Part shown: positions 1-56,347 of the stretch, piece by piece
Layout: every line of letters starts with the position of its first letter
Position numbering within the stretch: the stretch's first letter is position 1
Assembly (NCBI GenBank): GCA_000004985.1
Contig: GG738849.1
Length of the DNA stretch: 64,000 bases
Source of the DNA: Naegleria gruberi
Taxonomy: Eukaryota
Strand: one strand, 5' to 3'
Notes under the pieces: model-generated
Told to the model about the DNA's origin: nothing
Database searches by the model: none
What the model saw: the letters and a program-made list of their open reading frames with translations, nothing else
Position numbers and translations under genes: made by a program

Positions 1-1033
1 TCCATGAAGAGCATCTTTTGGTCGGTTACTCTATTCAGTGAAGCATTGCACAATGTCATCTCAATTCGTGTATTCGTGTGTTTAGTGTTTGTGGAGGAGG
101 TGGTTGTGTAGAGTAAATTGCTATTGTCATCAGTGGTGCAATCAGAGCAGCTCTTCTTAATCAGTCCAATCAAGGAAAACGGTTGGAGACCAACAATTGC
201 TTGTTGTCCATGGGTCGATTCAAAAATCATATTGTTCTTAGTTTCAGGTTTTTCAGTTATTCAACTTTGATATTTGTTTCACAGAGTTTTTCTGCTAGAA
301 TGTTGTGAAGACTTTTTTTTTATGAAATGTTGATTTTTAAAACACAAAATGTTCAGTTTGAAATGGGTTGAACGAGTGTATCTTCGTATGCAAACAAAAC
401 GAATGTTCGTAGGTAACAGAGCTAATTTGGTGGTCCATTAGGGTATTCAGAATAATCGATAATGAAAAACTGCTGTTTTCAAGAATCATGACACAATAGT
501 CATATGAGTAAGGCTGCAAAAGTCGTTTGGAATATGAAATGGAGTTATTATCTCATCTCTACCAATAGACATTTTACAAATAAGGAGCTTGTTAAAAACA
601 ATTATTTAGGAATATCACTTCCCATGTAAAGACTGTTTGGGAATAGTGGATGATTGTTTTTCCACCAGTGAGGAAAACAAGGCCTCTCGGCGCTTTGTGA
701 AGGCGACTATAGATCCTCTTCGTGATCAAAGGATTTAATAATCCACGAGATACAGAATTGGTCACATCCCTGTATAGAGAAATTTTTTTACAACCATTGC
801 AATAATAACTACGGTTTTTATCCTCTCCTCCACAACACATGATCGGTGCTAGAGGCAGATCTTTCATTTGATTGAAGGTTTTCAAATCTTAATTTGCTTA
901 TTACAAGTTGTTGAATAGGAAGGAGGAATTGGTGCAACAAGTGAACACTAAAATTTAAAGCCTTGCTTACTTGATAGCTTTGAGATTTTGGCGCTTAAAA
1001 AAAAATAGCTTTAGACACTGTACTTTGAGTAAA

Positions 1034-4000
1034 ATGATCGAGGAAGACATTTTTGAGGAAATTTCCTTGGTCAATTTGTTGAATGATATTGAGAAGACAA
1101 GGCCTTTGAAGAGGAGTGATCGAATTGGTGCAAATGGACAACAATTAGTAGCTACCACATCTAGATCAAGTTTGCTTATGGAGAAGGAGATAATTCCCCC
1201 TGATATTGTGCCTTCAATGAAGAAGATTCCTGCCGAAAAGCCCTCAAAGGTTGTGAATCCTCTCAAAATCCAAAAGCCTAAAAAGACAAAAATTGTATCT
1301 GGCAGGCAGCAAAACCATCACCAAAAGAACTCTCTTCAACAACAAGGAAAGAAGAATCAAGGCTTGAAAGAAAAAAATGTTAATCTGAAACGAAACTCTT
1401 CAAATGATGATAACAACGGTTGGAAAGGTCAATACGAGAACAATAATAATCATGATGAAAGCTCTCCCACCATTATGGAAGAACAAAATCTTGAAGGAAG
1501 GTTATCTGTATCATTGGTTCATCATCGTTTCAAAAACGTTTTCGGATTTGGTCACTTTAACAAGCTACAGTCAGCCTGTTTTCACAAAATTTATGATTCC
1601 GATGATAATGTTGTAATTTCAGCTCCAACAGGATCAGGAAAGAGTTGTTGTTTGGAATTGGGAATGATTAGAGTATTGGAAAAGTATTATGGAAAAAAGC
1701 AAGAACAAGGAAAACACAAGATTATTTACATTGCGCCAGTGAAGGCTTTGGTGCAAGAGAAGTACAATGAATGGAAGCAAAAGTTTTCCTCTCTCGGGAT
1801 TAATGTTGGAGAGTTGACTGGTGACACTCATCAAGTGACAGCAGAGACTTTGGAACCATTTGATATTATATTAACAACACCAGAGGTATGTTTTCATTGT
1901 GACGATTTATTTCCTTAATTTCTTAGAAATATGATTCTTTGAGTAGAAAATGGAGAGATGACAGTTGTTTGAAATTTGTGAAGTCTACAGAGTTGATTCT
2001 TATTGATGAAGTTCACTTGTTGAATGAGGTGAGTATTTTGAAATACCTTATTGTCATAATATTTTCTATTAGGAAAGAGGAGCTGTTTTAGAGGCAATAG
2101 TATCCCGTATCAAGAGCATTTCCTCAATTCAAAATCATAGCTCACGAATTATTGCTCTATCAGCTACAATTCCAAACATTGAGGATGTAGCCACTTGGTT
2201 GGATGTCTCACAATCAAATGTATTGGTATTTGGTGATGAGTATAGACCATCCAAACTTGAATTAAGGTCCATTGGATTTACAAATGATAAGAAGAATTAC
2301 TTTGCCTTTGAGAAAATGTTAGATAAGAAATTATTTGATATTATCAAATCTGAGAGTCACGAGAAACCGACTCTTGTTTTTTGTAGTAGCAGAAATTCCA
2401 CAATGAAGAGTGCTCAACAAATTGTCAACGATTCAAATTCTTGCAAAACCAATTACTTTATCACATCCAATGAACAGAAAGAGAGACTCACTGCAAAGTC
2501 CAAAAATGTTGAAGATCAACAACTCAGAGAAATGATTGTATTTGGAGTTGCCTTTCACTCAGCACAGCTTTCCTCTAACGACCGTAATATTGTAGAGTCA
2601 TTGTTTTCAAATAGGGAGTTGAGTGTAATTTGTACCACCTCCACCCTTAGTCAAGGTCTCAACACCCCAGCATATTTGGTCATTATCAAGGGAACCAAAA
2701 TCTATCAATCTGGAACCGGATATAAGGAATATCCCAGTATGAATGTTCTTCAAATGATTGGTAGAGCAGGAAGAGCTGGTTTTGAGGAGGCTGGTCTTGC
2801 TTTGATTTTAACTGAATCTAATATGGCCGAAACCTATCAGAACCTTGCAAATAACAATTATGTCATTGAGTCTACTCTTCACAAATACATATTCGAACAT
2901 TTAAATGCTGAAATATGCCTACAAAGTGTAAGAGATCTAACCGAATCTACCTATTGGCTTAAATCAACATTTCTCTATGCGAGGTAAGTAATTTCAATTT
3001 TGAGTACATTCCAACTTTTTGATAAGATTGCAGAAAAACCCAGAATATTACGGGCTCACAACTTCAGAAGACCTTGAGAAGAAAGTGGAAGAAATTCTCG
3101 AGAAGAGAATCACAGAGCTTGGTGATAATCAAATAATTAACATTGATGGAACCCTAATCAAACCAACTCCTCTTGGTCAAGTAATGTCAAGACTGTACAT
3201 TCAATACAAAACCATGTTGCTCTTACTGAGCTCTATTGGAAGTAAGATGAATGAAAAGAAAATTCTCCAACTTGCTTGCACTGCTGAGGAATTTGCAGAA
3301 TATGCCATTCGGCAAGGTGAAAAAGGAGTACTCATATCATTGAATCAAAATGAAAAGATCAAATATCCATTGAAGAAAAAGATAGAAATGGCAAGAGAGA
3401 AGGTTTTTGTCCTTGTTCAGAGCGTTCTTGGATCAATTACAATAGAGTCTGTCAGTTTGAGACAACAATCTGTCACCCTTAGATCACCTCTTTCGAGAAT
3501 ATTATCTTGCCTCTTTGAAATTGCAAAGAATTTGGGCTTTGGTGTGACCTGCAGAAATGCATTCAAAATGGCCAGAAAAGTGCAAGTTGGATCTTGGAAT
3601 TCAGGATCTACTCTTCCAACCATTCACTCCAGCCAGTACAAGAATGGTATTTCAGTTCAAATAGATATTGGATCTGTTCATAATGCACTTAATAAGTTTT
3701 CCTTGGTAACTATTGAAACTAAGGAGGGTAAAATTCTGGCCCACAGAAAGGTGTGTGAAAGTGGGAAGACATTTTTCAAGATTGACCCAAAGTCACTCCA
3801 CGGCGATTTCTGTTGTTTTATTTGTAACAGTTATGGTGATGAAAGTCAAACTCAAATTACTATTACTGAAAAACCAACCAATTTTAAACGAAAGTACGAA
3901 GATAATAAGGAAAATGAAATTCCCATCTCCAATCCTCCTAAAAAGAAGAATGCATTTACCAACAATCTTAATGAACTAAAACCCAATGTTGTCAATAAGA

Positions 4001-4320
4001 ATGATTCCAGGACAAAGAATGCTGACAAGAAGATAGAAAAGAAGCAAAGCAATCTGGAATTCACTCCACCAAAGAGAAAACCCCAACAACAACGTAGAGA
4101 AATGTCACCTGAAAAATTCGTGTCACCTATACTTGAGAAGGATCCAGAACAATTCTTTGCTCCTCCAAAATCTTTCCAAAAACCAATGTTGAATGATATT
4201 GATATTACCTTAACACCAATCAAGAAGAATTTTGGAGTTAAAAACAATTTGATCGAATCCATTATGAGATATCAACAAAATTCTGGTGATTACATAAGAT
4301 TTGGAAATATGTTTGAATAA
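1034..4320 (+). CDS. HFM1: Ski2-like DEAD/DEAH helicase with one helicase cassette plus a C-terminal Sec63 domain (Mer3/HFM1-type). Proposed exons 1034..1885, 1927..2028, 2073..2983, 3027..4320.
   Basis: Walker A ISAPTGSGKS, DEVH box (LILIDEVHLLNE), SAT (ALSATIPN), motif VI MIGRAGRAGFEEAGLALILTE, then a Sec63-like WH/HhH region. Introns start gtatgt, gtgagt and gtaagt, end in AG, and preserve frame. Only one cassette before the stop, which distinguishes it from Brr2/ASCC3. Confidence 0.7.
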
Positions 4321-4321
4321 T

Positions 4322-4997
4322 TTAAAACTTTTTACTCTTTCTCGATGAACCAACTCCTTGTTGTTGATTATAGTTTTGGACTAAATTACGTACAGATACA
4401 GCAAAATTCAGAGAATCAATTTTCTCTCCAAATGTATAAAAAGGATTACAAATACAATCAATATATAAAGAATGAAGTTGTTGGAATAATGATTTGATTT
4501 CCGAATCTCTGTCCGATTGTTGATATTCGTCTCCTGCAATTATTAATAATAATTTAACATCACTGTTCGTTATATATCCATAAACTTTGTAAATTTCAGT
4601 TGGGAAAAGAAGACCCAAATACATGTCATTTTGACTAACATTTGTTGTTGTTTTACGATTGCTGATCTTTTCTTCAACAATATCCAAAGCTGTGTGAGCA
4701 ATGTAGTGATACTTGAGAGGTTCTTCAGCCTCTGCTGTTTTATAAACTTTAAGAAATAGTGGATTATTCTATTATTATTATTAATTATTAATTATTTAAA
4801 TAGATAAATATTAATTTCATAATTTTCCAACGTTGATGATTGTTAATATTATCAATGATGATGGTGTAAAATTCCGCACAAGTTGTGAATCACATTAAAT
4901 ATATTGATCAACATTTAAGTTTGATCACACTCATAAAATCATAATTTCTTCCACATACCTTCTTGCCAATGATTGACAAACAACAAATACAAGACAT
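4322..4997 (-). CDS. TRAPPC2L: Trafficking protein particle complex subunit 2-like (sedlin family). Exons 4959..4997 and 4322..4768, about 200-nt intron.
   Basis: Exon 1 MSCICCLSIIGKK followed by a gtatgt donor. Exon 2 ...NPLFLKVYKTAEAEEPLKYHYIAHTALDIVEEKI...YKVYGYITNSDVKLLLII...CNPFYTFGEKIDS is colinear with human TRAPPC2L. Confidence 0.8.
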
Positions 4998-5036
4998 TTT
5001 ATAATTTATTAAAAATAATATTAATATCGTTGGAAA
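4998..5036. promoter_or_regulatory. 39-bp A/T-rich bidirectional promoter interval between divergent start codons of TRAPPC2L (-) and PCBD (+).
   Basis: ATG of the minus gene at 4997 and ATG of the plus gene at 5037; intervening sequence tttataatttattaaaaataatattaatatcgttggaaa. Confidence 0.5.
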
Positions 5037-5513
5037 ATGCTCAAAAATCTAATTGTTCGTTCTTCATCATCAAAGCCATCATCAATACTCTGTAAATATC
5101 ATCTCTCCAACTCTTTCCTCCAAATCAATAATAGCAAATCAATTCAAATGAGAAAAATACATAAATACACTGATGAAGAATTGAAGGTAGAATTGGCCAA
5201 AATACCATCATGGGAACTTCATCAAGAGACTAATAGAAATGTGATCCGAAAGAATTTCGTTTTTAAAGATTTTAAACAAGCTTGGGCTTTTATGAATAAA
5301 GTAGCCGAGAAGGCTGATCAGGTAAGTAATAATATCCTAACAAGAATGAATTCTAATTCTTCTTCATAATAGGCCGATCATCACCCAGAGTGGTTCAATG
5401 TTTATAACAAAGTCAATATTGTCCTTTCTACTCACGATTGTGGAGGCTTATCACAACGAGATGTTGATCTTGCCTTGTTTATTGATTCTGTAGCCACCAA
5501 CTCTAAACAATAA
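5037..5513 (+). CDS. PCBD: Pterin-4a-carbinolamine dehydratase (PCD/DCoH) with an N-terminal presequence-like extension. Exons 5037..5321 and 5373..5513.
   Basis: PCD signature ...[39 protein letters not shown] (HHP-x-W ... HD). gtaagt donor at 5322, AG acceptor at 5371-5372, frame preserved. Confidence 0.75.
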
Positions 5514-5654
5514 ATTCCTTCCTCCAATTCCTCTTATACTTGTCTCACCTTGTTATTGTGTTCTCGTCTTTATCAAACATCACCTCTCTTGCATCACAAC
5601 CAAAACAATTTAATAAATAAATTTTCATCACCATTAGAATTAAAAAATCAAAAA

Positions 5655-8600
5655 ATGAAGTTGGAAGCACTGCTGAGTGTGGATTTACCATCAGACAAAC
5701 AAATCAGCAAACTCAGATCGGTTAGTTTCCATCCAACACAAAACAAAATTGCTATTGGATTTAGAAAGGAAATTTATGGTATGTAATTTGTGGATGTGAG
5801 GATGAAGAATGTGATTTCAATATTAATTGTCTATGTTGTTGTTGAAAAAAGAGTATGATCTTGGAACAGGGTCTAGGACTGCTCACTTTAAAACAGAGAG
5901 TGAGGTAACACATATTGCTCACTCTAATACTCATCCGGCAATTGTTTCTGCATTACAAAATGGATGTTTTAGTGTTCTTGATCTAAATACAAATACACTG
6001 ACTGCTTTCCATATTCCTGTCCGAAGAGAGGAAGCAAGAAGTGCATCATTCTTTGCCCTGTCCAATAAGAGACCAATGATTTTCTATGCAAGAACTCCTT
6101 CAAAATTATCACGTGAAAGAACCAATATTGTTTTTGGTATTGAAATGTTTTCCGATTCAAAACATAGAGTTGAGTATAGTCATAAGAAACAAATCACAGC
6201 AATTACTACACATCCTTGTAAATCTTTGATGGCATCAGCAAGTCAAGATGGTGTTATTAAAGTATGGGAGACTGAACAACATAATTTATTATTTCAAATT
6301 GATGGTAAGTTTTTATTATTGATGATTTTAGGATTGAATTTGTGATAATATAGAATTTGAAGCAAACAAAAAGGAAAGAGAAGCTGTTACTAGCTTGTGT
6401 TTTTATAATAGTGGAAGAATAGTGATTATGACATTTTAATTTCTGGAACAAGAGAAGGATCAATCAAAGTATGGTATTTACCAAGTACAACATCACCTCA
6501 ACAACCACGTGTTGTTGGTTATGTCACTACTGATGAATGGATCACATCAATTTTAATCCATCCAAATTTACCATGTCTTTTCTATTTGAACGCTAAAGGA
6601 TGTTTAAATTCTATTGACATTGGATCAATTATTTATTCAACAACTGGTGGACCAAAGATGAAGACATTATTGACAGAATTTGAAATGTTAGATCCATACT
6701 ATGTTGCTTTGCACAGAACAAAGGATACCAAAAAGAGATTAATTCCTATCATTAATGCTACAATCCATCCAAAGACTGGTAATATTGCATTTTACGTAAG
6801 TTTCTTTTTTAAACATTTGTTGTTTATTATTATATTCATAACAAATCAAATAGGGCAAAAATTTCCAAATTTCTGAACTAAATGCAAGAGTCATCAAAGG
6901 AACTATTGTTGCTGATAGATTCCCAATATTTTCTGCTTTTGATTTTGGAAATCCTGGAAGCATGTTACCACATCCTTCTGTTATTAATTCCAATCTCGAA
7001 ATGTTATTGTCCTCTAAAAAACAACAAACCTCTAACGAACTTGTTGCCAATGTGGACTCTTTGGATTATCAAATACCCTTCAATACTATTCCTTATGTTG
7101 ACAGTAGATCTAGACCTCCTCACAATACAGTTTTGTCTTTTGATTTGAAGAAGGAAGTTGCTCAAGTACTTGTTGGATCTTTGAGAGCTACACAAGATTT
7201 GTATCCCTTTTATAGATGCACCAAATCTAATTTCAGTCCTAATAGAAAATCAGTATTGATGTTCTATGAAAAATTACTCAACTCTTCAAATACTTATGAG
7301 AGTGATAACTCTAAATTTTTCTTCTCCAAAGTAGATGATATTTACTCGGGAGGCAAGGATAAAGTCGTATTGCAACTTCAAAAGGGTATTGATGGAGGAT
7401 TTTTGGGAGATTCTAACAAGGATTATGTTGTCCTTTCAGAAGGAGGTGATGTTCTCAAGGTTTACACAAACAATGAGCTTCAAAGTGATATCAAATTGAA
7501 CCGTAAAGTCAAGTCATTATCAACTTGTCCATTCGATAGATCAATTATTTACTGTACAGCCAATAACGAATTAAGTTTAGCCACCTCTATTGAAGACAAG
7601 ACAGAAAACAGACTCCAAATTGACAATAACAAAATTTTCCACCTCAGAGGAAACGAAACACTTATTGATATTCAATGGCAAAGAGAACCATTGTGTAATG
7701 AGGCCTGTTTAGTTGGTGTAATTACTTCTAGAAGAGTTATCATCCTTTCCAAAAATATGGATATGCTTTCATCTGTTGAAGCTTCCAGCCAAATTTCATT
7801 CCAATTCCAATCTATTCTCTGGGTAGGAACAGTACTCCTCTACAATTCTAAAAACTTTATTCACTGTCTTCATCCATATGGATCTACCAATAATTCTAGT
7901 GCCTACATTGGTACATTGGATCATTCTGAATCAGTGTTGTGCGCCACTTTATGTGACAGAGTTTACTTTGTCTCACACAAAGATAGAACCCCAACAATTT
8001 CCTATCGTTATTTGAACATTGTAGAACCTTTGCTTTTGGGTATTTTATCAATTCCAAAAGAAAAGCTTTCTGATGAACAAAGAGGCGATCTTTTAAGAAA
8101 GGTTACCGAAAGATTTGATTGTAGAAATGTTTCTGAAAAAACCTTGTACTTTTTGGAGAGACAAGGTTTCCCTCACTTAGCATCCGAGCTTGTTACAAAC
8201 AGTTTGTTTAACTTTTCATGGGAGTTGAGATTAAGATTGGCTAAGAGTTCAATGAACTTTTCTTATGCCTTGAAGGTTTTGGTTTCTCAATATGAAGAAG
8301 AGTCTCATGATCGTACTGGATTTATTTCTAAGAATTCAAAGTTCTACACACATTTTGTAGATCTTGCCAAATCTTCTTTAGAATATGGTCAATTTTCTGT
8401 TGCTCTCAAATGTTTTGATATGATCAATGATGTTTGGGGATTATTTAATTTATTCACAACTACAAATAATGCCAATGGCTTGAAGCTATTAGCACTTAGA
8501 TGTAGAGATTCACCTGATTTTTATTCAATTTATACAGCTTGTGCTCTATTGATTGGACCTGAAGTGATTGAAGATTTCATAAGAAGTTATGATATCACCA

Positions 8601-10054
8601 TTAATTCTATGGATGTAAATGTTGATGATTGGCCATTTAAGGTTACAGATGTTAAGGAATACGAAGTTAGTACTGAAATTAAGGGAAGAATGCTCGTTGG
8701 TGAAAGAAAGGTTACTGATCAACTCAACTCTGGTAGAGATGCAAGTCTTACTACTCCACCATCTCTGGGAGGTATGCCATCTTCTGAAGAGGAAATTTCC
8801 AAGATGGACATGACTGATTTCCTTAAATGGTTGGGTTATGGAACCATGTCAGTTGGAAAGGAAAATCTTGAAGAGGTTGGTTTCAAGGATGACTTTGGTG
8901 GTCAAGGAGGATCAGCATCAATTGAAGAAGATGAGCCAGCAGGTAAATCAACAAGTAAATTGCCACCACTACCACACAAGTTGCAAGCTCCACCTTCCTT
9001 GGATGTACCAAACGGTTCAACTACATCAGCTACAGAAGCATCAGAGAAGGATGATGATGAAACTAGTGAAATGACATCCACAAAAGATCAAAAATCAAAG
9101 AGAAAGGGTGACAGTGATTCTGATGATAGCGATTCTGATGATGAGGAAGAAGATAAAAGGACCAAGGCATTCCAAGGTCTTAAGATTAAGGAAGAAGTTA
9201 TCTACAAGGATGCTTCAGCCACCGATATTAGAGATTCCATGTCAGGACTTGGTGGATTGGGAGGAGCCAGTAGTAGTCGTAATAGAAGAAGAAGAGGTGT
9301 CACTACAATCAACAACAAGCAAGAGTCAGCCAATGATTCTACCCAAGAATCACCAACACCTTCTACACCATCCAGTCAAAGCAATGAAGACGACGGACCT
9401 AAGCTTGTTAATATTAATCCAACTCAATGCTTGAAGGATGGTATGACAGCTATGGAAAAAGGTGACTTTAAGGAAGCAAGAAATCAAATTGTTTCTGCTA
9501 TTTCAGCTCTAGTTAAGGATAGTACTCAAATCCTTAAGAAGAATAGTATTATTCTTTGTGTAAATTACAAATTATTGATTCACTTGTTAGCCAGAATAAG
9601 AACAGTAGAAAATCAAGCCGATGCCAAAGAACTCGCCAGATTGGCAACATTTATTTGTCAAATCAATGTAATTAATAAGCATAAGATTGTCTGTTACAAT
9701 ATGGGTATCAAGAGAAATATGAATGCTGCCAACTATGGTATCACTAGCTCGATTATCAAGCAATTTATTCCACTCACCGAAAGTATTCCAAAAGTGAAGG
9801 AAGAACTTCAAAAGAGATATCAAGAATGTTCTGAAAAGGGATTCTCTAATGCTGATGCACAATTGGCACAACTTTTCTCAGAGGCAACAGAAGAAAAACC
9901 ATTGAAATTCTGTTGGAAGACTTATCAAGTTATTTCATCACGACACTTGAAGTGTTCATATTGCTCAAGTTTAGGATGTATTTCTGATACTTGTGCAGAA
10001 GATAGTGTTTGTTCATATTGTACATATGGTAATATGGAGCTTGTAGAAGAATAA
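5655..10054 (+). CDS. Large WD40 beta-propeller + alpha-solenoid protein (about 1350 aa) with a Cys-rich C-terminal tail: vesicle-coat/tether-like (protocoatomer) architecture. Exons approximately 5655..5778, 5852..6304, 6354..6795 (frame problem near 6420) and 6854..10054.
   Basis: WD repeats (SVSFHPTQNKIAIG, ASASQDGVIKVWE, GTREGSIKVW), a long helical region, an acidic Ser/Asp-rich insertion (SDSDDSDSDDEEED, about 8880..9400) and a C-terminal CSYCSSLGCISDTCAEDSVCSYCTYG motif. Family assignment (HOPS/CORVET, TSET/TTRAY, SEA/GATOR-like) not resolved. Confidence 0.6.
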
Positions 10055-10072
10055 TTTATAAATTATAACGTT

Positions 10073-11911
10073 TTATACATTGCTATCTCTTATCAAACTC
10101 ATTTTCTTCAATAGTTCACACTCAAACCAATACCTTGTTCTAAGGTAGAACATGTATCGGATATCTAACCATTTCCAATCACAATATCTGTGAATGATTA
10201 CTACATTGTCAGAATATCTTTGATCATTTTTTGCATACTTTTTAAATTGAGAGTATGACAAATTAACAAATGGTGAAAGATTGTGCTCAAGATCCATGGC
10301 ATGTTGGAACATTTCATCCACTCGATCAATTTCCATAGTTTCTTCCAATCTTTCTCTAATTTCATCCTCAGAGGTTGCAGGTGGTCTGTTGATAGTTTTG
10401 GATTCGAAAAAATTGGCTATCCATCCAATAGTTCTAATTGACATTTCCACCTCAAAATCTCTTTTTGGTATAATTAATGCATTTCTCTGACTGTTCAATA
10501 AATATTCAGCACGAGCTTGGTCGCTCACAATAATTTCATTAAATGCCACTCTTACTCTTGCAAAGCAATATCCAATAATTATGCAAATGAAAACCAATGC
10601 AAAAATAGTTAGCTCAGAATAAAATCCATTATTATATTCAATGGATGGAATAAATGCTTTCAAAACTGCTAGCATGGATGTTATGGACAAAATAAATAAA
10701 GAACTGAATATCATTATACAGGCAACAATATTCATAGCCGTCTTGTACCACGAGACAAAAAGTATGCTCACCGACAATACTATCAAGACAAGGAAAAAGT
10801 CCACAAACATTGCAATGACAATCATAATAGGGTGAGTAAACATGCTATGAACAAAGCATGAAACAAAACATGAAAAGTATAAAATCATATCCAATCTCGA
10901 GTTACTCTTTGCACACATGTTTCCCAGATCAAATCTCCACTCGTAACAATGTATCAGATAAACATATGAAACAATCATGAATGGAAAGACCAATAATAAG
11001 CTTGGAATTAATATAAATACATTTAGAGATTGGATTGAATTGAAAAATCCAAGACTCACTGGAATAACCATTGCAGGTAATAATTCCACTAAATTAAATA
11101 ATAACCAAAAAGCCACAACTCTCTTCCTTTCATTTCTTTGTTTGAATATAATCATCTGAGGATGATCTTGAATATTTTCATAAGAATCCACTTCTCTGGT
11201 TCCTTTCAAAAATTGATATGATTTCCAAGATTTGTAAAAGCAAAAACCAGTCAAAATTAACAGTGTCAGAGTAACAAATGTTGCAAATAGGAATGGTACT
11301 AAAAGTGTTCCCACAAAATCCGAGTCATCATCCCACAAATAAGAAATCTTTAAATTTCCAATCACTGACAGGTATTTGAAATATTTTACATTTGATCGAT
11401 GCCATGGCAGATGAAAATCCGTGAACAATGTAATCCACTGAGCCAGTAATATAAAATGGCACACCAATGACACCATTCCCTTATTTGAATGTTTGAAAAT
11501 CTTGCCAAATAATCGTTCTTTCAAAGAAGACACGTTTCGTTTCGAGTGTGTTGATGGAGTTGGCATCTTTTCCAAATCATCATCATTTCCAAAATACAAA
11601 TACAATTCATAAAAGAAGTAATACAATCCCTTTTCTCTATCCTTCAAAGATAATTGTGGATATAATTTCTCATAACAAACATCATGATCAGACAATACAC
11701 TTGCCGATGATACAATATTAGGAATTATTCTCGTGGTTGTTGTTGTTGTTGTAGATATTTGTTGTTGTTGCTGCTGATGATTATCTCCTCCTCCATTGGA
11801 TACGATCAAACGAGTAGCCATCTGTTGTTGCTGTTGTGTGTTACTATTGCTATTCATCATCTGGGTCGCAGATAAATATTGTTGCTCCTCCTGTGGATGA
11901 TTCGTAGACAT
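10073..11911 (-). CDS. Polytopic membrane protein (at least 8 predicted TM helices) with a Gln/Thr-rich N-terminus; family unknown.
   Basis: 612-aa ORF; multiple hydrophobic 20-25 aa segments; poly-Q and poly-T N-terminal tract. Confidence 0.5.
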   Translation of the reverse strand: MSTNHPQEEQQYLSATQMMNSNSNTQQQQQMATRLIVSNGGGDNHQQQQQQISTTTTTTTRIIPNIVSSASVLSDHDVCYEKLYPQLSLKDREKGLYYFFYELYLYFGNDDDLEKMPTPSTHSKRNVSSLKERLFGKIFKHSNKGMVSLVCHFILLAQWITLFTDFHLPWHRSNVKYFKYLSVIGNLKISYLWDDDSDFVGTLLVPFLFATFVTLTLLILTGFCFYKSWKSYQFLKGTREVDSYENIQDHPQMIIFKQRNERKRVVAFWLLFNLVELLPAMVIPVSLGFFNSIQSLNVFILIPSLLLVFPFMIVSYVYLIHCYEWRFDLGNMCAKSNSRLDMILYFSCFVSCFVHSMFTHPIMIVIAMFVDFFLVLIVLSVSILFVSWYKTAMNIVACIMIFSSLFILSITSMLAVLKAFIPSIEYNNGFYSELTIFALVFICIIIGYCFARVRVAFNEIIVSDQARAEYLLNSQRNALIIPKRDFEVEMSIRTIGWIANFFESKTINRPPATSEDEIRERLEETMEIDRVDEMFQHAMDLEHNLSPFVNLSYSQFKKYAKNDQRYSDNVVIIHRYCDWKWLDIRYMFYLRTRYWFECELLKKMSLIRDSNV

Positions 11912-12075
11912 TTTTTCTTGGAGAGTTTTTGGAAAGGCGCCACATTACAATTCAATAAACAAATAAATTGGTTGTGAATATTGGAATATTGATAAATGTA
12001 GGCAAGAAAGACTGTAATGAAGGGAACATTTGAGGTAATAATCAGCAATAGAGTCATGACGATGAGAGAGTGAAT

Positions 12076-13878
12076 TTATTGTTGATCGACTTGGTCATAG
12101 AGAAGAGAGTGAATGAGGGAAGGAATGGAAGTTTTTGATTCTTGAGCTTGGAGGGAAAGGAGATTGGCCAGCTCTGGATCTTTTTGGAGGTGAGTGAACA
12201 TGCTGGTGGCTCTAATGTTTTCCAATTGAATGTTGTAATAGATGTGGATGTATTCAGTGTTGAAAGAGGAGAGGATGAGGACCAGTTCATTATTGTGTCG
12301 GGGAGTGAGCGAAAATTTTCCACAATAACAATTGGCTAGTTGGTTTTTGAAATTGTAGGTCACGATATTCTTCTCGTGGTCGAGAATGTAAATGATACCA
12401 TCCCATGATGTTATCAGTAATTGAGAATTTTGAGAGGATGTAATGAAATTGTGCGCACTGAGGGAGAGAATTTCATGTTCAATATTGACAAAATAGTCGT
12501 AATATTGATGATAGTTTTGCTTAGTGATGGTATAGTTGGGTGCGTGAACGATGGTGCCTTTCGTGGAGAGGATCTCTTCTGTAATGTTGAATTGTTTGAA
12601 TGGATCGATTACTATGACTTCTCCGCTCAATCCTGAGAGGGCTACACATTGATTTTCTCCAAATTTCACATTACCAACCACTGTGAGAGGTTCATTCTTG
12701 AAATTAATATGTTTTGGTTCAATAATTATTACAGTATCTATTGATGAAATAATTCCAAAACCTCCTGATACAAATCCTAATATTATCGAATCATTGTGAA
12801 TGGAAATACTATTAACTTGATTATCCTTCGTGTAAATTTCCTTCAAAAAAACAAAATCGACTCCATTTTGCTTTTCCATAAATTTGTAAACAAAGAGGTT
12901 TCTATTATTTCCTCCAAAAATGATTTCCTCAACTCCATCCTTATCAATATCAAAACTAATTGCACAATTAATATTACATGGAATCCTCGAAGTTAAAAAT
13001 GGAAGAATTGCCTCACTTCTATTTCTTGAATTAATGTGAACTGTTGGTTGATGGAATTGTGCAGTCGGTGGAGATGGACTTCTTGAAGGTGGCACAAAAT
13101 TGCCCTGTTCAGTTGGTGTTATAGGTGTAGTATCAAGTGATGTCTTACTCGAATATGAAGAAGGTATATGCAATGGTGTTGGTATATCTTGTCCAGTTCC
13201 CAATGATGACAACATATCATGAAAAGGATTCGATTGACTATCAGCAGTCATGGAACTATCATAACTATTCACACTGATATTATCATTTTCCATAGTGTAG
13301 GGATGATTCGTATTAAAGGTAGTTTGACTTTCCACACTTTGTGCATCATCAAAACAATTACTAAGAGTTGTCGATGGACGTTCTGTGAATTTGAAAAAGT
13401 GTACTTCTCCCTCAGCACAAATAACAATTAAAATTGGCATTGCCTCCCAACATCCACACGATGAAGCAGGTAATTTTCCATAAATTATTGCTGAAATCTA
13501 AATTCATTCCGAAATTAATCATATTCAACAATTAATCCAAAATAAATAAATTATTCATAATCATAATAAATTAAAGTCAATATTCATAATAATAATAATT
13601 ATAAATAATAAATTATATTACCAATATATATCCAAATCAATTCAAATAAAACCCACCGTTCCTAAATTAACACAAACATATTTCGGATACTTGTATTGAA
13701 TAAATTGATAAATACACAATGTTCCGTTAATATTTCCAATCACCAATTCTCTCAAACCATCTCCATCAACGTCTTCCAAGAGAATGGCATTCTGAGCAAG
13801 GCTTGTTTTTTGATCAAAGTACAAATCATGCGAATCGACAAAGGAAACTTGTCTCAGCGTCGGATGTTGTTGAATCAT
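12076..13878 (-). CDS. ITFG2: ITFG2-like FG-GAP/beta-propeller protein (KICSTOR subunit ortholog). Exons 13657..13878 and 12076..13497.
   Basis: N-terminus ...NAILLEDVDGDGLRELVIGNINGTLCIY matches the ITFG2 motif [26 protein letters not shown]. ...ITSWDGIIYILDHEKNIVTYNF matches [20 protein letters not shown]. C-terminal ...SLLYDQ tail. Donor gtgggt, acceptor AG, phase 0. Confidence 0.6.
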
Positions 13879-14247
13879 TTTTTTTTAATTCCAATTTTTT
13901 TAATATTAAATATTTTTGTAACATTGTATAAAAGTATTTAAATATTTAATATTTTAAATAGTGCAAGATAGAAGGAATTCAAAATGATGAAAAAGTGGTG
14001 ATTTCAAATAAACTTTTGAAAATTCAATTTCATCTTGCTGCCTTCTTGGATGATCTAATTTTGGCGCCATATTCGGAATTTGAAAAGAACTTCATCTTCA
14101 ACAAAAAAAATATTCAAAAAAAAAGTTCAAGAACGAAACTCTCTCTCGGAATTTAAAATTTGAGAGTTTTTTTGATCATCAAACTAGACAATCGGGCACA
14201 CATAAAGGAATCTTTTTTGAATTCAAAGAGCTTATGGAAGAGGACTC

Positions 14248-16818
14248 ATGAGTATTAATTTAACAAGCAACAGGATGACTTTTTATGATAATCATCATGG
14301 TGTGCAAAATGAGAGTGTCGTGAATGGTAGTGGTGGTAGTGTTGGTGGACCTCATGAAGTGGAGGCTTTGAAACAACAATTGGAAAAGGAAAAACAAATG
14401 AATAAGAAATTAATGTCGAATATCAAGAAAATTAAAAAGAAAATGATTGATGTTTCGGCTTTAATTGAATTGCATGATGGATTGAAAAAGAGAATAGAGG
14501 AACAAAATGGTGAGCTTCAAAAATTCTATCAACAAAATCAAATACTTTTGACTGAAAATGCTAATTTGAAGAAGAATGCTCCACCACCACCAAAACAATC
14601 AAATGATTCATCTGAGCAGTTGGCTCAATTACAAAAATTACGATTTGAAAAAATAGAGTTGGAAAATAAGGTGAAAACCCTTAAAGAAAAAATTGAAAGA
14701 GTGAATTCTGAAAAGGACACGATGAAAAAACAATTTGAAACTGAGGAAAAGAAATGGAAGAAACAAGAGGCTACTCAGCAACAAGTGGAAGAACTAAGAT
14801 CCAAGTTTGCATTAGCTCAGAAAGAATTAACCGAATTGAGAAGTAAGAAGGGATTCATGTCATATGCTGATTTTGCAATTGTCAAACCAACTGTTTCTGA
14901 AGAAAAGGAAAAGAAGATATGCAAATCTGTGGCTGTTAATACAGAGGCATCATTGTTGGAAAGGTACATTGCTCAAAAGTATCCTAGTAGAGCTGTCTCT
15001 ACACCAATTAGCAAACCAAAAGAAGTTGTCATTCCTGCTAGTAGCCAAAATGACGATGATGATGAATTTGAACCACTTGGATCTATGGATACATCGATTG
15101 ATATAATTACTCCTCCTCAATTGCCATCAAAGCCATTGTTACTACCTAAACCAACTCTACCTTTACAACCAGTTACCGTTACCACCACAACTACAACCCT
15201 TAAGAGAAAGAATGAAGAAAAGGAGAAGGAGAAACAACTCGAGAGGAAATTGAAAAAGATGAAAAAGCCAACTTCTGAAGAATTTGAAGAAGTTTTGCCA
15301 TCTTCCAAACCTGTTTCTACACCCTCAATAATTCAAATGCCATCCCCATCTCACATTTCAATAGTTGAAAAGAGAATTAATAAGGATGCAGTGGAAAAAT
15401 CAAGGGAAGAAATGCCACCACCTAAAACAGTTCCAACTACAGTGGCTAGTTCAAATAATGAACTGTCAACACCACAATTACCACCAATATTCTTTGAAAA
15501 ATTGGAGAATCAAACTGTGGAGATTTATATCGAGAATATCTTTATCAACTTTATTTGTAAATTTGAGCCATTCTTTAGTGAGACCAAGCATCAATCATCT
15601 CTACTAGGAGATGTCAATAGAGCTTGTAAAAAAATTTGGACAAATTACCCTAAGCAAACGAATGAAATAGCCAATGGTATTTTAACAATTATTGCCAAGT
15701 TGATCGCAAGTAAGGCATCATGTGAAAAGTGGGGATTATGTATAATTTTATTAGATCACATGGATATTTATAGTTTTTCCAACCAACTATTGGAAACCAT
15801 TTTTGCTAATTTGTATATTACAATCACTTCATTTATTACCGGTATTGAGAGTAGTGACCAATCATTCAAAAAGTTGATGGCTCTTTTGGCTGGTATTAGT
15901 ACAATTAGTAATGCTAAATTTGCCAGACCTGACTTTTGCATGTTTTCCAGGGTAAAGGAGATATTTTACTACATATTACAATATAGCTTACAAAATACGA
16001 GAAACCAATTTGGAATGATTAAGTATTCTAATTTCCAACTTTTACTTGCCATGCTAACTTCAAACAGGAGGTTAATTACAAATGGATTTGACACCTACTC
16101 TCCTCTAGATTTGGCAATTTATTTTACATTCTGTAGTATGCAAAGCAAACTTAGTTCGAGTCAAAACTTATTAGATGCCGAGAATACCAAGGCTATTGGA
16201 GATATTGAAAAACTCAAGGATCTTTACAAGTTAAAGGATCAAACAAATCTCACACCACCTTCCCTCTCGCAGACCATTATTGAGAGTATTCATACAGGTA
16301 CAGATGAAAAATCCATAGCACAAGCATCGAATGCATTGGGCTTGCTCACTTGTTTAGTAGATGATTGGAACTTTACATTTAATACTGTGATTTTGAATGG
16401 ATTATGGTCTCTCGTACTCAAATATCTGAATGATGGAAATTCTAAACTGATAGCAGTCTTGTCCATCATTTCAAAGCTCGCCATTTACAGATCACAACAA
16501 ATACCACTGGAAAACAAATCCAACCAAAATGAATGGGATAGTTTGGAAATTTATCATGATGGCCTTGGAGATTTATTGGAAAAGTTCAACTCCATTCTCT
16601 TACTGGAAAATGTTTTCTCAATGGAAGCGTCGAAACTTGTTGCAGATACTATGATTGAAATTGTTGTTAACAAATTAGCCCTTTCCAAATTACTTCCTTA
16701 TCAAGAAAAGCAAGAATATTTCATTCAAACACTCAAAGTCCATCTAGACACGGCAAAAGATTGGATTCAAAAACATATGGTAGAATCAGACCTATTCAAA
16801 ATAATTAATGTTGTTTAA
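14248..16818 (+). CDS. Coiled-coil N-terminal region plus a C-terminal alpha-helical domain; function unknown.
   Basis: 856-aa single ORF. Heptad-rich region (LKQQLEKEKQMNKKL...ELTELRSKK), a Pro/Thr linker, and a leucine-rich helical C-terminus. Confidence 0.5.
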   Translation: MSINLTSNRMTFYDNHHGVQNESVVNGSGGSVGGPHEVEALKQQLEKEKQMNKKLMSNIKKIKKKMIDVSALIELHDGLKKRIEEQNGELQKFYQQNQILLTENANLKKNAPPPPKQSNDSSEQLAQLQKLRFEKIELENKVKTLKEKIERVNSEKDTMKKQFETEEKKWKKQEATQQQVEELRSKFALAQKELTELRSKKGFMSYADFAIVKPTVSEEKEKKICKSVAVNTEASLLERYIAQKYPSRAVSTPISKPKEVVIPASSQNDDDDEFEPLGSMDTSIDIITPPQLPSKPLLLPKPTLPLQPVTVTTTTTTLKRKNEEKEKEKQLERKLKKMKKPTSEEFEEVLPSSKPVSTPSIIQMPSPSHISIVEKRINKDAVEKSREEMPPPKTVPTTVASSNNELSTPQLPPIFFEKLENQTVEIYIENIFINFICKFEPFFSETKHQSSLLGDVNRACKKIWTNYPKQTNEIANGILTIIAKLIASKASCEKWGLCIILLDHMDIYSFSNQLLETIFANLYITITSFITGIESSDQSFKKLMALLAGISTISNAKFARPDFCMFSRVKEIFYYILQYSLQNTRNQFGMIKYSNFQLLLAMLTSNRRLITNGFDTYSPLDLAIYFTFCSMQSKLSSSQNLLDAENTKAIGDIEKLKDLYKLKDQTNLTPPSLSQTIIESIHTGTDEKSIAQASNALGLLTCLVDDWNFTFNTVILNGLWSLVLKYLNDGNSKLIAVLSIISKLAIYRSQQIPLENKSNQNEWDSLEIYHDGLGDLLEKFNSILLLENVFSMEASKLVADTMIEIVVNKLALSKLLPYQEKQEYFIQTLKVHLDTAKDWIQKHMVESDLFKIINVV

Positions 16819-53008: not shown

Positions 53009-56000
53009 ATGTCTCAAAAACATCAACAGCATCAACAACCTCTCGCTCAAATTTCCATTCCCAGCAAATCGACACTCTACGCAACAGCCATCAAACAAAA
53101 TTCATCATCATCAAGAAATCCGAATATTGGCCAAAATGTTGCTGCTTCTTCTTCTTCATCATCAATTGTTGTAACACCTTCCACTCCATCAACTCCTTCA
53201 GCAAGTCCGAATTCATCAGCATCATCACTTGTTTTATCGGTGAGACCACTCTCTATTAATCAATGTGAATTGTCTAGTAGTAGTAGCTGTGGTAGTATTG
53301 GAGGAGTAGTTGGAGGAGGAGTTGGAGATTGTTTAAAAGAATTAATTAAACAATCGTCAATGAAATCAAATTCTTCGGTTTATGAAAATAATTACAAAAA
53401 GTTGGAAAATGATTTAAATGATATTTCATTTCTTGATTTGATTGAATGTAAATTGAATTGGTTGAAGGAAAAGAAGTTTTTTGATCATTATAATATATGT
53501 CAGGTTGTGGATTTAGTGTCAATGCCTCATTTGGATTCACATTTCAAGTACAAGACAAAGATTAGATTTTCCAGTGATGAATCGTCGAGTAATGTAGTGT
53601 TTGATCCATTTACTTGCTTTTTTGTGAGTTTGGAGAATAGAACTACACTTAGGAATGAAGTGGATTTTTGTAAAAAAGAAGGAAAGAGAGTGAGTGATGA
53701 TAGAGTTTACAAAATTGCTTCTCAATTGATGAGTACTGTACATTTTATGCACATGTTTGGGATTTTTCACACCATGTTATGTCCTGAATTGATTTGTATA
53801 GCTGATAATGTAGGTTTTTTATTGGAATAATTGATCATTTAATTCGAATTATAGGGTGATATCAAAGTGAAAGATGCCTTTTATTATCATATGGTTGTTT
53901 GGATTAATTCATCCCTTCAGACTCCCAATGTCTTCTTGAAGGAAGCTCGAGATTTTGAATTGTTTGTTCCATATTTGGCTCCTGAATTGTTTTCTTTGGC
54001 TTGCTATGAGGAGAATTATTTTCAAGATGTAAATAACAAGTGCGATATCTGGTCAATTGGTGTAATTTTATTGGAATTTATTTTAGGTAATAGAATACCA
54101 TTTCCTACACGTTTAGATACTAAGGATAAAACAAAAGAGGAATGGATTGAGTCGGCAATGAATATTTATTTGGATATTTTTGATTTTGTAGATTATTGTA
54201 AATATAGGGAGAATGTAGAAGAAACTGAAACTGAAACTCCAGACGATGCCAAATATAAGAATGCATGGAAGAGAATTCAAAGATTGGACAAATCACTCAG
54301 AGATTTATTATTCCACTGTTTGGCATTCAGACCAAGTGAAAGACCTGATATGGATTGGCTCATTGAGCAACCTTATTTCCAAACCATTTCAAAGGAACGA
54401 TTGGCTCACTACTCGTATAGAATTGCCAAATATCCACACCTGAAGAGTTTGGATGAAAAACCTCTAATTACCAATAAGAAGGAAGTTTCCATCACCTCTG
54501 GTACTCTCTCACCACTCCAGGAAAGACAAAACATGTTCAAGCAAAAGTACTTTGATTGGAAAAAGCTCTACGATGGAAAAATTAGTATATTCGATTTGTT
54601 TTACAGGAGAATATTTGACATGTCCATTGTACCTCACTTTTTCAGATATAATAAGAATTGTCCAGGTGATAAACTTCACATGAGCTATGCCAGCATCTCA
54701 CAAGCTCATGTCGATAGTTACCTATTGATTCCAATGAGCTACCTCGAGGAAGCTCTCACTCACATCAAACTCTACAATAATGATGCTCTGGGAATTAGAT
54801 CTGATACACCCGAAACACCAATCGACTCTCCAACAACAGTGGATGATCGATTGTATCCCTCACTCGTTCACGTCTCTGGTGATATTGGAAAGAAGAGAAG
54901 TCTCTACAATAAGGAAAACATTATGAATGGAAATACCAATACTTGGAATAGATTTTCTGCACTCATCACTGAGAAGGATATGAACTTTGCCTATCAGCAA
55001 AAGAGAGTTCACACCTTTAGAAAATTACTTCTCAGTTATCCATCGAGTAGGGAGGAGATTATCAGAGAGGCCAAGATTGATATTCCCTCAATTCTTAGAG
55101 GAGAAGTTTGGGCTGCCATCTTGGGAGTTGAAGAAGATTTGAAAGCTGAGGATATTTATACTAAAATTCTATTCGAATTACAAAAGCAACCACTCTCAAA
55201 TGTTACAAAACGACAAATTGGAGTAGATGTGCCCAGATGTCACCAATATAATCCACTTCTCCATTCCAAGATTGGTCATGAAAAATTGAGGAAAGTTCTC
55301 GAAGCATGGGTCTATTATCATAAGAATGAAGGACTCGTTTATTGGCAAGGTCTGGATTCATTGTGTGCTCCTCTCCTTGTGTTGAATTTTGACTTTGAAG
55401 CAAAGGCATTCTGTTGCCTTAAAGCCCTCGTCAATAAGTATACTCACGATTTTTTCACATCGAGAGCCAACTCAACTGCCATGGAAGAGAGATTGTCAGT
55501 ATTTAAAAAGTTGCACATGTATCATGATCCAGAGGTTGCCTCTCATTTGCATCACATTTCATTCCTTCCAGAATTGTATGCTATCAGTTGGTTCCTCACA
55601 CTCTTTGCTCACTCATTGCCAATTGAAAAATTATTCAAATTGTGGGATGCTCTCATTCTTGGAACACCTGAATTACCTGTTTTCATTGCAGTTGCCATTC
55701 TCAAACAAATGAGAAATAAGATTCTCGAATCGGATTTCAACAGTGCCATGTATCTATTCCAGAATATTCAAGGTGTTGACATTATTCAAGTATTGGACGA
55801 TACGAGAAGAATTCAAGAAAAGTCTCCAAGTGGTCTCACCAATCCAAAATTCTTCCAATCCAATCATTCTTTCCGTATCTCAATTGATGATTACAATAGA
55901 GAGTGTTTCTATCCGAGAATTACATTGGAAGATTTTGAAAATTCAACACTTTCGTCCATTTCTTTCATTGTGGACATTCGACCAATTGAGGATTACAAAC

Positions 56001-56347
56001 TAGATCACTATCCTTCAGCCAACCACATTTCCACTTTTATTTCCAACGATGAAGAATCACTCAATCTCTCTGCAAACAACCTATTCCAACACAATCTCAC
56101 TCAACTCACAACTGAACTCAACTTTAAGAAAGGTCTTGCCATCGTTGTAATGGCCCATTTGAATCAAACAGATCAATTACTCCAATTAGAACATGCCTTA
56201 ATGTTAGAATCGATACCATACGTTTCTATAGTCCTATTACATCCTCCAGAAAGTAGCGAATCATTGTCAACAGAGTACTCTGATCCAATCAGAGAACAAA
56301 CTCAAAATTCTGAACAAATTGCAATTGTTCAAGAAATTGGAAATTAA
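53009..56347 (+). CDS. TBCK: TBC domain-containing kinase-like protein: pseudokinase-like N-terminal region, Rab-GAP TBC domain, C-terminal rhodanese-like domain. Exons about 53009..53809 and 53855..56347.
   Basis: Kinase-like region (HTMLCPELI..., APELFSLACYEE..., DIWSIGVILLEFILG). TBC motifs IGVDVPRCH (IxxDxxR) and YWQGLDSLCAPLL (YxQ). Rhodanese-like IVDIRPIEDYKLDHYPSANHI. gtaggt...atag intron in phase 0. Confidence 0.7.

Follow-up and report, generated by a model that had tools for sequence, protein, structure and literature searches.

A single missing G breaks the frame of a predicted TTRAY1 gene in the Naegleria gruberi reference and is probably a consensus error

When one WD repeat is encoded in two different reading frames of the same exon, is it the gene that is broken, its splicing or decoding that is unusual, or the sequence that is wrong? 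The question is raised by an exon at positions 6354-6795 (+) of the window, i.e. the 64,000-nucleotide stretch of Naegleria gruberi DNA (assembly GCA_000004985.1, contig GG738849.1) analysed here. A first-pass annotation had assigned this exon to a WD40 coat-like gene, and had offered three explanations for its frame discontinuity: pseudogenisation, a sequencing indel, or a long intron that would include the WD-like stretch.

The gene extends from 5655 to 10054 (+). Exon 1 (5655-5778) starts with the ATG at 5655 and ends in phase 1, at the same boundary as in N. lovaniensis (...KEIY|E YDLG). It is followed by intron 1 (5779-5851; 73 nt, GTATGT...AAAAAG), which has a counterpart at the same position in N. 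lovaniensis (3125-3257 of contig L001), and by exon 2 (5852-6304), which encodes WD40 propeller blades in frame 1 and shows 86% amino acid identity to N. lovaniensis (tblastx). Intron 2 (6305-6353; 49 nt, GTAAGT...ATATAG, phase 1), already proposed in the first-pass annotation, is real: it is present at the same position and in the same phase in N. lovaniensis (L001 3711-3803) and in a Naegleria metagenome contig (L003), and is missing from the Willaertia magna gene, which is intronless. Exon 3, to be considered below, is separated from exon 4 by intron 3 (6796-6853; 58 nt, GTAAGT...AAATAG, phase 0), again found at the same position in N. lovaniensis (L001 4241-4288). Exon 4 (6854-10054; 1,066 codons and the stop) encodes a second propeller, a putative COPA/B-like solenoid, an acidic/Ser-rich linker and a conserved C-terminal Cys-rich region, and is colinear with A. 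thaliana TTRAY1 in profile comparison.

Judged by its sequence, this gene is orthologous to TTRAY1, known as TWD40-1 in plants. The TSET/TPLATE complex, an endocytic adaptor, has two scaffold subunits built of beta-propellers and an alpha-solenoid, and TTRAY1 is one of them (Hirst et al. 2014, PMC4031984). A profile built from three heterolobosean proteins and run with hmmsearch aligned with A. thaliana TTRAY1 over three colinear blocks, one in the N-terminal propeller, one in the middle region and one in the C-terminal region (128.9 bits), which gives the coat-like gene of the first-pass annotation its name. The same profile gave no match at E<=10 to A. thaliana TTRAY2, searched as 1,171 of its 1,377 residues with the C-terminal part left out; by this measure the gene is closer to TTRAY1 than to TTRAY2. 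Overall sequence identity to the plant TTRAY1 proteins is low; the architecture is the same, with two beta-propellers followed by a predicted COPA/B-like solenoid and a conserved C-terminal Cys-containing region. Residues ~19-280 match Pfam WD40 and many beta-propeller families. The domain order is also that of COPI alpha-COP and beta'-COP (the B-COPI scaffold), but the Pfam matches on that side are weak and under the family cut-offs: 26.5 bits (cut-off 57) for the COPA/B second propeller at residues 430-697, and 22.4 bits (cut-off 33) for TPR_COPA_B on the predicted alpha-solenoid located after the propellers. Searching PDB sequences with the protein returned generic WD40 matches and weak matches to beta'-COP propellers only. 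Alpha-COP and beta'-COP are given as separate N. gruberi genes in PMC4031984. On sequence grounds, the best named relative is thus TTRAY1 and not a COPI protein, and association of the product with the TSET core (TPLATE/TCUP/TSAUCER/TSPOON) is putative.

Hirst et al. 2014 (PMC4031984) give the other five N. gruberi TSET subunits in their source data. The NgruTTRAY2 published there is distinct from the present gene (N-terminus MSVKSPKL..., scaffold_28); it is the only N. gruberi TTRAY protein in their TSET source table and in their alignment of TTRAY sequences, from which N. gruberi TTRAY1 is absent (PMC4031984). For the present locus, no N. gruberi protein came out of our database searches, and neither an exact look-up of the exon 4 ORF nor a look-up of the neighbouring P0004 gave a match. 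The protein search was word-based and lossy (it missed P0011 and P0166 once, and P0001 and P0002 another time), so that the failure to find an N. gruberi model there is weak evidence only.

The frame break lies in exon 3. In frame 2 (6356 mod 3) the exon reads EFEANKKEREAVTSLCFYNSGRIVIMTF and then meets a TAA at 6437-6439; in frame 1 it is open from 6412 (WKNSDYDILISGTREGSIKVWYLPS...), immediately after a TAG at 6409-6411, up to the next donor at 6796. Both observations had been made in the first-pass annotation and they hold; the two stops are the upper and lower bounds of the interval in which the frame has to change. The continuous frame of N. lovaniensis aligns with 6350-6412 in frame 2 and with 6415-6486 in frame 1 (tblastx). 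Once joined, the halves form one WD repeat, as had been surmised; it corresponds residue for residue to the orthologous repeat and adds a second repeat to the Pfam WD40 match, which reaches 48.0 bits over two stretches (32.8 bits over one if the long intron is assumed). Chance does not explain the break. DNA alignment, together with the blastn differences to near-identical contigs, reduces it to one G absent between 6415 and 6416: AGT GGA GAG AAT AGT GAT (S G E N S D) is expected, and the window has AGT GGA AGA ATA GTG AT. Exon 3 is therefore made of a first part, 6354-6415 in frame 2, encoding (E)FEANKKEREAVTSLCFYNSG, and of a second part, 6416-6795 in frame 1 of the reference coordinates, encoding (E)NSDYDILISGTREGSIKVW...GNIAFY. 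The site reads GGAGAGAAT when the G is present and GGAAGAAT when it is absent, and sequencing reads with and without it would be told apart by TAGTGGAGAGAATAG versus TAGTGGAAGAATAG. Only the addition of one base or the removal of two restores the frame. The first-pass proposal that one nucleotide be added or removed around 6419-6424 was thus correct as to addition; removing one leaves the frame broken, and the lesion is at 6415/6416. Two other mutational events were considered and discarded. An 11-nt duplication was suggested by the direct repeat AATAGTG (6407-6413 and 6418-6424), but the repeat spans only 7 of the 11 nt, and exactly one G separates the window from the near-identical strain. 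A two-base insertion in place of a one-base deletion suits the loop length of N. lovaniensis, but is contradicted by L003, Willaertia and the near-identical contig L004.

In the comparison with orthologues, which the first-pass annotation had recommended, N. lovaniensis (78-80% amino acid identity to the gene), L003 (~75%) and Willaertia magna (63-66%) each encode here a single, uninterrupted WD repeat with the pattern ...VTSLCF(Y/C)N(S/N)(G)(E)NSDYDILISGT.EG.IK.W. At the site of the missing base they have Glu (GAA) or a loop of equal length. The closest sequences are two N. gruberi-like contigs, L004 (ENA ERZ929261; 98.5% identity to the window) and L005 (Logan; 99.2%), which are two assemblies of one Illumina run, ERR1078381 (PRJEB11402), and hence not independent samples. 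Their amino acid sequence for the first part of exon 3 is identical to that of the window. In both, GGAGAGAAT stands in the place of GGA-AGAAT, i.e. GGA G AG (Gly-Glu) in place of GGA|AG; the result is S-G-E-N-S-D-Y-D in an unbroken frame, and translation is free of stops across the entire exon. They differ from the window by substitutions at ~0.6% of the aligned bases and by intergenic indels; when 2.7 kb more were aligned with the ERR1078381 sample, one coding indel was found, which is in frame (9 nt), the remaining ones being intergenic. These contigs represent another strain or haplotype, so they establish that an intact allele exists and not that NEG-M, the reference strain, carries it. 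Scans of metagenomes by DNA pattern and for related loci yielded no independent copy, and neither did the literature on PRJEB11402.

Apart from the missing G, nothing in the gene is damaged, and purifying selection acts on it. With the G inserted, ~1,406 codons are read without a stop, while the two off-frames contain 60 and 163 stops; no second lesion was found in the 4.2 kb of coding sequence. Compared with N. lovaniensis, the gene has a dN/dS ratio of ~0.07. Amino acid changes unique to each lineage are 69 in N. gruberi and 77 in N. lovaniensis, or 57 versus 68 downstream of the break. Between the window and L004, all five substitutions in 971 coding nucleotides are synonymous.

Could the two frames be reconciled without any lesion? 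It would be enough for the WD-like stretch to be left untranslated, either because it belongs to the long intron of the first-pass annotation (6305-6454, 150 nt, GTAAGT...CAAGAG), a GT-AG intron which does keep the frame (...QIDEGSIKVW), or because exon 3 hides a second small intron, for which a few weak frame-restoring GT-AG pairs are available (e.g. 6411-6454 and 6397-6452). The segment 6354-6454 is, however, a conserved coding repeat in all the orthologues, and it is open throughout in L004. The long intron would delete 33 residues that all of them encode, the intronless gene and the 98.5%-identical strain included, and each of the small-intron models likewise drops conserved blade residues. 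We enumerated all the frame-restoring pairs of GT/GC/AT donors and AG/AC acceptors: the orthologues and the Pfam scores, 32.8-34.0 bits with one repeat as against 48.0 bits with two, rule them out. Over this stretch the amino acid identity to N. lovaniensis is 75-76%, whereas true introns vary in length between the two species (49 versus 93 nt and 73 versus 133 nt), and the internal donors, GTGGAA and GTGTTT, are unlike the GTAAGT/GTATGT of the gene. Splicing is thus very unlikely to be the explanation. A change of frame at the decoding level, by programmed -1 ribosomal frameshifting in 6412-6437, transcriptional slippage or RNA editing, is less credible still, even though one -1 shift anywhere in 6412-6436 gives an open product; if made on the TTT-TAA stop, it yields ...GRIVIMTFLISGTREG..., whose generic WD40 score (48.6 bits) is equally good. 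But the 25-nt interval 6412-6437 contains no X XXY YYZ heptamer in frame 2, and the longest run of A at the inferred site is two bases. Conservation moreover puts the shift at 6415/6416, away from the stop: frame 1 is where NSDYDIL is conserved, and where its codons depart from those of N. lovaniensis they do so at frame 1 third positions (TAT/TAC, GAC/GAT, TTA/CTA), a pattern that rules out a shift at the stop. Finally, the base is present in the DNA of relatives, down to the 98.5%-identical one, and a conserved change of frame was found in none of them, the frame being continuous in four. That TTRAY1 is an old, decaying pseudogene is hardly to be believed either. Read literally, the reference does truncate the protein at residue ~220, and the absence of TTRAY1 from the TSET source table agrees with a loss. 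The pseudogenisation envisaged in the first-pass annotation, if understood as lasting decay, is nevertheless contradicted by the constraint described above: a single lesion, a low dN/dS, equal rates in the two lineages, synonymous-only polymorphism with respect to the near-identical strain, and a corrected frame free of stops next to stop-rich off-frames. Long intron, alternative splicing, programmed frameshifting and old pseudogene are therefore rejected.

One missing G in an otherwise intact gene is most likely an error of the draft sequence and otherwise a very recent mutation; these are the two causes left. We consider that the G was probably lost through faulty base calling or consensus building in the Sanger draft of NEG-M; the fault, as we infer, lies with the record and not with the organism itself. 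A G following an A would have been dropped during the draft assembly, and the cellular mRNA would be read uninterrupted through exon 3 to give a protein of ~1,407 residues with a complete WD40 blade. Weak G peaks after A are characteristic of dye-terminator Sanger traces, which makes GGA[G]AG a typical place for a base to be dropped under thin coverage. The NEG-M reference is a Sanger assembly according to Table 1 of PMC9928731. Given that the five other TSET subunits are listed in N. gruberi, loss of TTRAY1 alone would be unexpected. The case resembles the single-base indel errors of draft assemblies in that one base is absent from a constrained ORF of a Sanger draft and present in a near-identical strain and in every orthologue; it differs from a proven case in that a real, recent NEG-M allele is possible at this site. 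Such a very recent deletion, specific to the strain or to one allele, is a tentative second choice, to which we give appreciable but clearly lesser weight. It could affect one haplotype, a working allele being left, or have become fixed in axenic culture, in which case TTRAY1 would be truncated after about 220 residues. Since the intact sequence belongs to another strain or haplotype (~0.6% substitutions), it does not prove a reference error. NEG-M is an axenic strain, long in culture, where a real mutation might be tolerated. Published work describes Naegleria as diploid and heterozygous (PMC9928731), and TSET as dispensable in Dictyostelium (PMC4031984); both points fit a real deletion. On the other side, a very recent deletion has to accommodate a 4.2 kb coding sequence without further lesion, differences from the near-identical strain that are only synonymous, and an N. 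gruberi lineage without acceleration. A lone G dropped from GGAGAG is, besides, no slippage-type mutation, yet it is a typical Sanger miscall; and, by a rough estimate, consensus indel errors in a 41-Mb Sanger draft should be commoner than real disabling indels in conserved genes.

If the preferred reading of a consensus error is correct, the biological surprise is small: a conserved gene was split in a draft reference by one missing base. Inserting a G after 6415 gives a TTRAY1 model of ~1,407 residues, which would complete the TSET hexamer of N. gruberi, a model excavate. It also indicates that 'absences' in comparative cell-biology tables can stem from single-base faults in draft assemblies. 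Were the deletion real, it would be relevant to membrane-traffic work that uses NEG-M. It is improbable that the G is absent from both NEG-M copies; this widely used laboratory strain would then be a natural TTRAY1 knock-out, the loss having possibly arisen, or been tolerated, while the strain adapted to axenic growth in liquid, a condition in which uptake routes change, and the comparison of NEG-M with wild N. gruberi would offer a system for studying TSET function beyond plants and Dictyostelium.

Elsewhere in the window, three places with a possible change of frame (1918/2199, 2987/3019 and 56347/56362) proved to be ordinary introns or separate genes and not further breaks. Three of the window's ORFs are exact matches to the N. 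gruberi proteins NAEGRDRAFT_46101, 78254 and 62924.

The cause of the frame break in the TTRAY1 gene is pinned to a single base. The gene lies on the + strand, from an ATG at 5655 to a stop codon at 10052-10054, with exons at 5655-5778, 5852-6304, 6354-6795 and 6854-10054 separated by introns at 5779-5851, 6305-6353 (49 nt) and 6796-6853. After the 49-nt intron, exon 3 reads in frame 2 as (E)FEANKKEREAVTSLCFYNSGRIVIMTF and then meets a TAA at 6437; frame 1 is closed by a TAG at 6409-6411 and is open from 6412 (WKNSDYDILISGTREGSIKVW...) up to the donor at 6796. These two stops confine the change of frame to 6412-6436. On re-reading of the window, everything that the first-pass annotation had said about the exon 3 frames was correct; as to its suggestion that one nucleotide be added or removed, only the addition holds, because frame 1 is reached from frame 2 with one more base or two fewer.

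The window has the features of AT-rich eukaryotic DNA (about 34% G+C), with short GTAAGT/GTATGT...AG introns, and three of its intron-less ORFs are exactly the N. gruberi proteins NAEGRDRAFT_46101, NAEGRDRAFT_78254 and NAEGRDRAFT_62924. The NEG-M reference of N. gruberi is a Sanger assembly of 40.9 Mb with 35% G+C (PMC9928731, Table 1). A protein search with residues 100-391 as query returned P0166, a 170-residue ORF product that matches the window's exon 2, read without splicing, at 100% identity. The two contigs that encode it were assembled from ERR1078381, a run of PRJEB11402 that is labelled metagenome: L004 (ENA assembly, 1,880 nt) corresponds to window 4854-6747 at 98.5% identity, and L005 (Logan assembly of the same data, 996 nt) to window 5570-6564 at 99.2%. 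In the DNA alignment both read TAATAGTGGAGAGAATAGTGAT where the window has TAATAGTGGA-AGAATAGTGAT, and the additional G can be placed at 6415/6416 only. With it, exon 3 reads EFEANKKEREAVTSLCFYNSGENSDYDILISGTREGSIKVWYLPS... for 132 codons up to the contig end and agrees fully with what the window encodes on either side of the break, and the Glu codon that it creates is also Glu in N. lovaniensis and in a Naegleria-like metagenome contig (L003). Another contig from the same sample, L006 (2,681 nt), is 97.7% identical to window 10848-13566; its coding DNA differs from the window by substitutions and one 9-nt in-frame indel only (an AAC repeat at 11736-11744, in the minus-strand ORF 10073-11911), its remaining indels all being intergenic. 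Indels of 2-21 nt relative to the N. gruberi-like contigs are likewise found in intergenic DNA only (window 5494-5536, 11995-12015 and 13515-13543). Across the ~4.5 kb compared, the G at 6415/6416 is the sole frame-breaking difference.

The closest proteins found were C9374_011361 of N. lovaniensis (identity 78% in BLASTP and 80% when aligned), then ABK040_009827 of Willaertia magna (63% and 66%), in which the full repeat is AVTSLCFCNNESNDYDILISGTREGSIKVW and PVTSLCFYDNGSSSDFDLLVSGTREGNIKVW, respectively. By tblastx, a single unbroken N. lovaniensis frame aligns first with frame 2 of the window (6350-6412) and next with frame 1 (6415-6486). A third orthologue is carried by L003 (ENA ERZ27315067, k141_1302718; 11,613 nt), at ~75% amino acid identity to both Naegleria proteins; it reads uninterrupted SLCFYNNGENSDYDILISGTTEGAIKIW and has an intron at the position equivalent to window 6305-6353. 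In the codon alignment, the N. gruberi GGA is followed at the break by two bases only (AG), then by AAT AGT GAT TAT GAC, and the relatives have a complete codon in place of the AG. Intron number varies, from three in N. gruberi to four in N. lovaniensis (the same three positions and a fourth, at 4977-5032 of its locus) and none in W. magna, whose gene has 1,415 codons in 4,248 nt (3001-7248 of its locus). The introns common to the two Naegleria species keep position and phase but not length (49 versus 93, 73 versus 133 and 58 versus 48 nt).

Other readings of exon 3 were rejected. The long intron 6305-6454 envisaged in the first-pass annotation has GT-AG ends and stays in frame, yet it removes residues encoded by every orthologue; the few, weak GT-AG pairs internal to exon 3 restore the frame, but each deletes residues that all orthologues encode. 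With these models the Pfam WD40 match drops from 48.0 bits and two repeats (restored frame) to 32.8-34.0 bits and one repeat. A -1 shift at the TTT-TAA stop equals the restored frame under the generic WD40 model, with 48.6 bits. It was rejected because it gives RIVIMTF instead of the conserved NSDYDIL and because the N. lovaniensis differences in that stretch sit at frame-1 third positions. Programmed frameshifting or slippage was discarded since the window sequence has no slippery heptamer or long homopolymer at the site and the base is present in the relatives' DNA.

Apart from this one site, TTRAY1 is fully constrained and is not decaying. The base-restored CDS has no in-frame stop in ~1,406 codons, against 60 and 163 in its two other frames. 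For the pair N. gruberi and N. lovaniensis, Nei-Gojobori dN/dS is 0.07, with 0.046 upstream of the break and 0.072 downstream; dS is saturated. With Willaertia as outgroup, 69 amino acid changes are specific to N. gruberi and 77 to N. lovaniensis (57 and 68 downstream of the break). The five substitutions between the window and L004 in 971 coding nt are all synonymous (AAA/AAG, CTG/TTA, ACT/ACA, ACA/ACC).

The consensus of the Sanger draft probably dropped a G, which would be missing from the consensus and not from the gene. Such an error is supported by the non-slippage character of the change and by the lack of any other sign of decay; the weak peak that dye-terminator chemistry is well known to give for a G after an A would fit it too. 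That N. gruberi keeps the five remaining TSET subunits (source data of PMC4031984) also argues for it. A real, very recent deletion is less likely; it might be present on a single haplotype, if the strain is heterozygous, or have occurred within the laboratory lineage. The contigs L004-L006 (sample ERZ929261) differ from the reference by substitutions at ~0.6% of aligned bases and so represent another strain or haplotype, which leaves room for it. These contigs offer a small view of natural N. gruberi variation, or of its second haplotype. The site is biologically ordinary: most likely the draft sequence is at fault, and a genuine mutation would have to be very young, in a gene otherwise fully constrained; the useful outcome is a corrected N. 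gruberi TTRAY1 gene model.

Sequence comparison identifies the gene at 5655-10054 as N. gruberi TTRAY1, because of a colinear profile match to A. thaliana TTRAY1 and none to the N-terminal 1,171 residues of TTRAY2. Pfam finds WD40 and beta-propeller families within the N-terminal 280 residues and, below threshold, a COPA/B second propeller at 430-697 and TPR_COPA_B. A profile built from the three heterolobosean proteins matched A. thaliana TTRAY1 (TWD40-1, from the TTRAY alignment of PMC4031984) colinearly and with a score of 128.9 bits, in three blocks (profile positions 22-278, 658-889 and 1203-1369 to residues 26-271, 735-967 and 1400-1563); the 1,171 N-terminal residues of A. thaliana TTRAY2, used as test sequence, gave no match. 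Exon 4, searched exhaustively with HMMER, yielded 171 relatives; among the best matches looked up, one cluster includes a Percolomonas sequence, and further ones are transcripts of Sulcionema, Artemidia and Stygiella. In Hirst et al. 2014 (PMC4031984), the table and TTRAY alignment contain NgruTTRAY2 (JGI 68453, scaffold_28) but lack NgruTTRAY1, whereas the text states all six subunits for N. gruberi; the subunit table (Figure 3 source data) has three N. gruberi beta'-COP entries. The present locus would fill the TTRAY1 gap of that table. Protein database searches, by a method that misses known relatives, returned no N. gruberi protein for it, an absence that is only suggestive.

The downstream neighbours of TTRAY1 are kept, and upstream synteny differs between species. 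A myosin-head gene lies directly upstream in N. lovaniensis (1-2915 of its locus) and in L003 (1729-6070), which encodes Sedlin/Sybindin as well as a pterin-4a-like gene, myosin and a complete TTRAY1, the last three in that order. In N. gruberi, within the upstream part of the window (1-5654), it is the pterin-4a-like gene that adjoins TTRAY1, and tblastx found no myosin in window 1-16000. A Brr2/Ski2-like helicase gene at 971-4320 (+), with DEAD, Helicase_C and Sec63 domains, is spread over three ORFs in different frames; its junctions at ~1886-1925, 2031-2071 and 2985-3033 are no additional frame breaks but ordinary GTATGT/GTGAGT/GTAAGT...AG introns. The ORFs 53867-56347 (a protein-kinase remnant and RabGAP-TBC) and 56362-57555 (a tetrapyrrole-methylase fold), both on the + strand, 15 nt apart and in different frames, look like separate, closely packed genes and not like a split gene.
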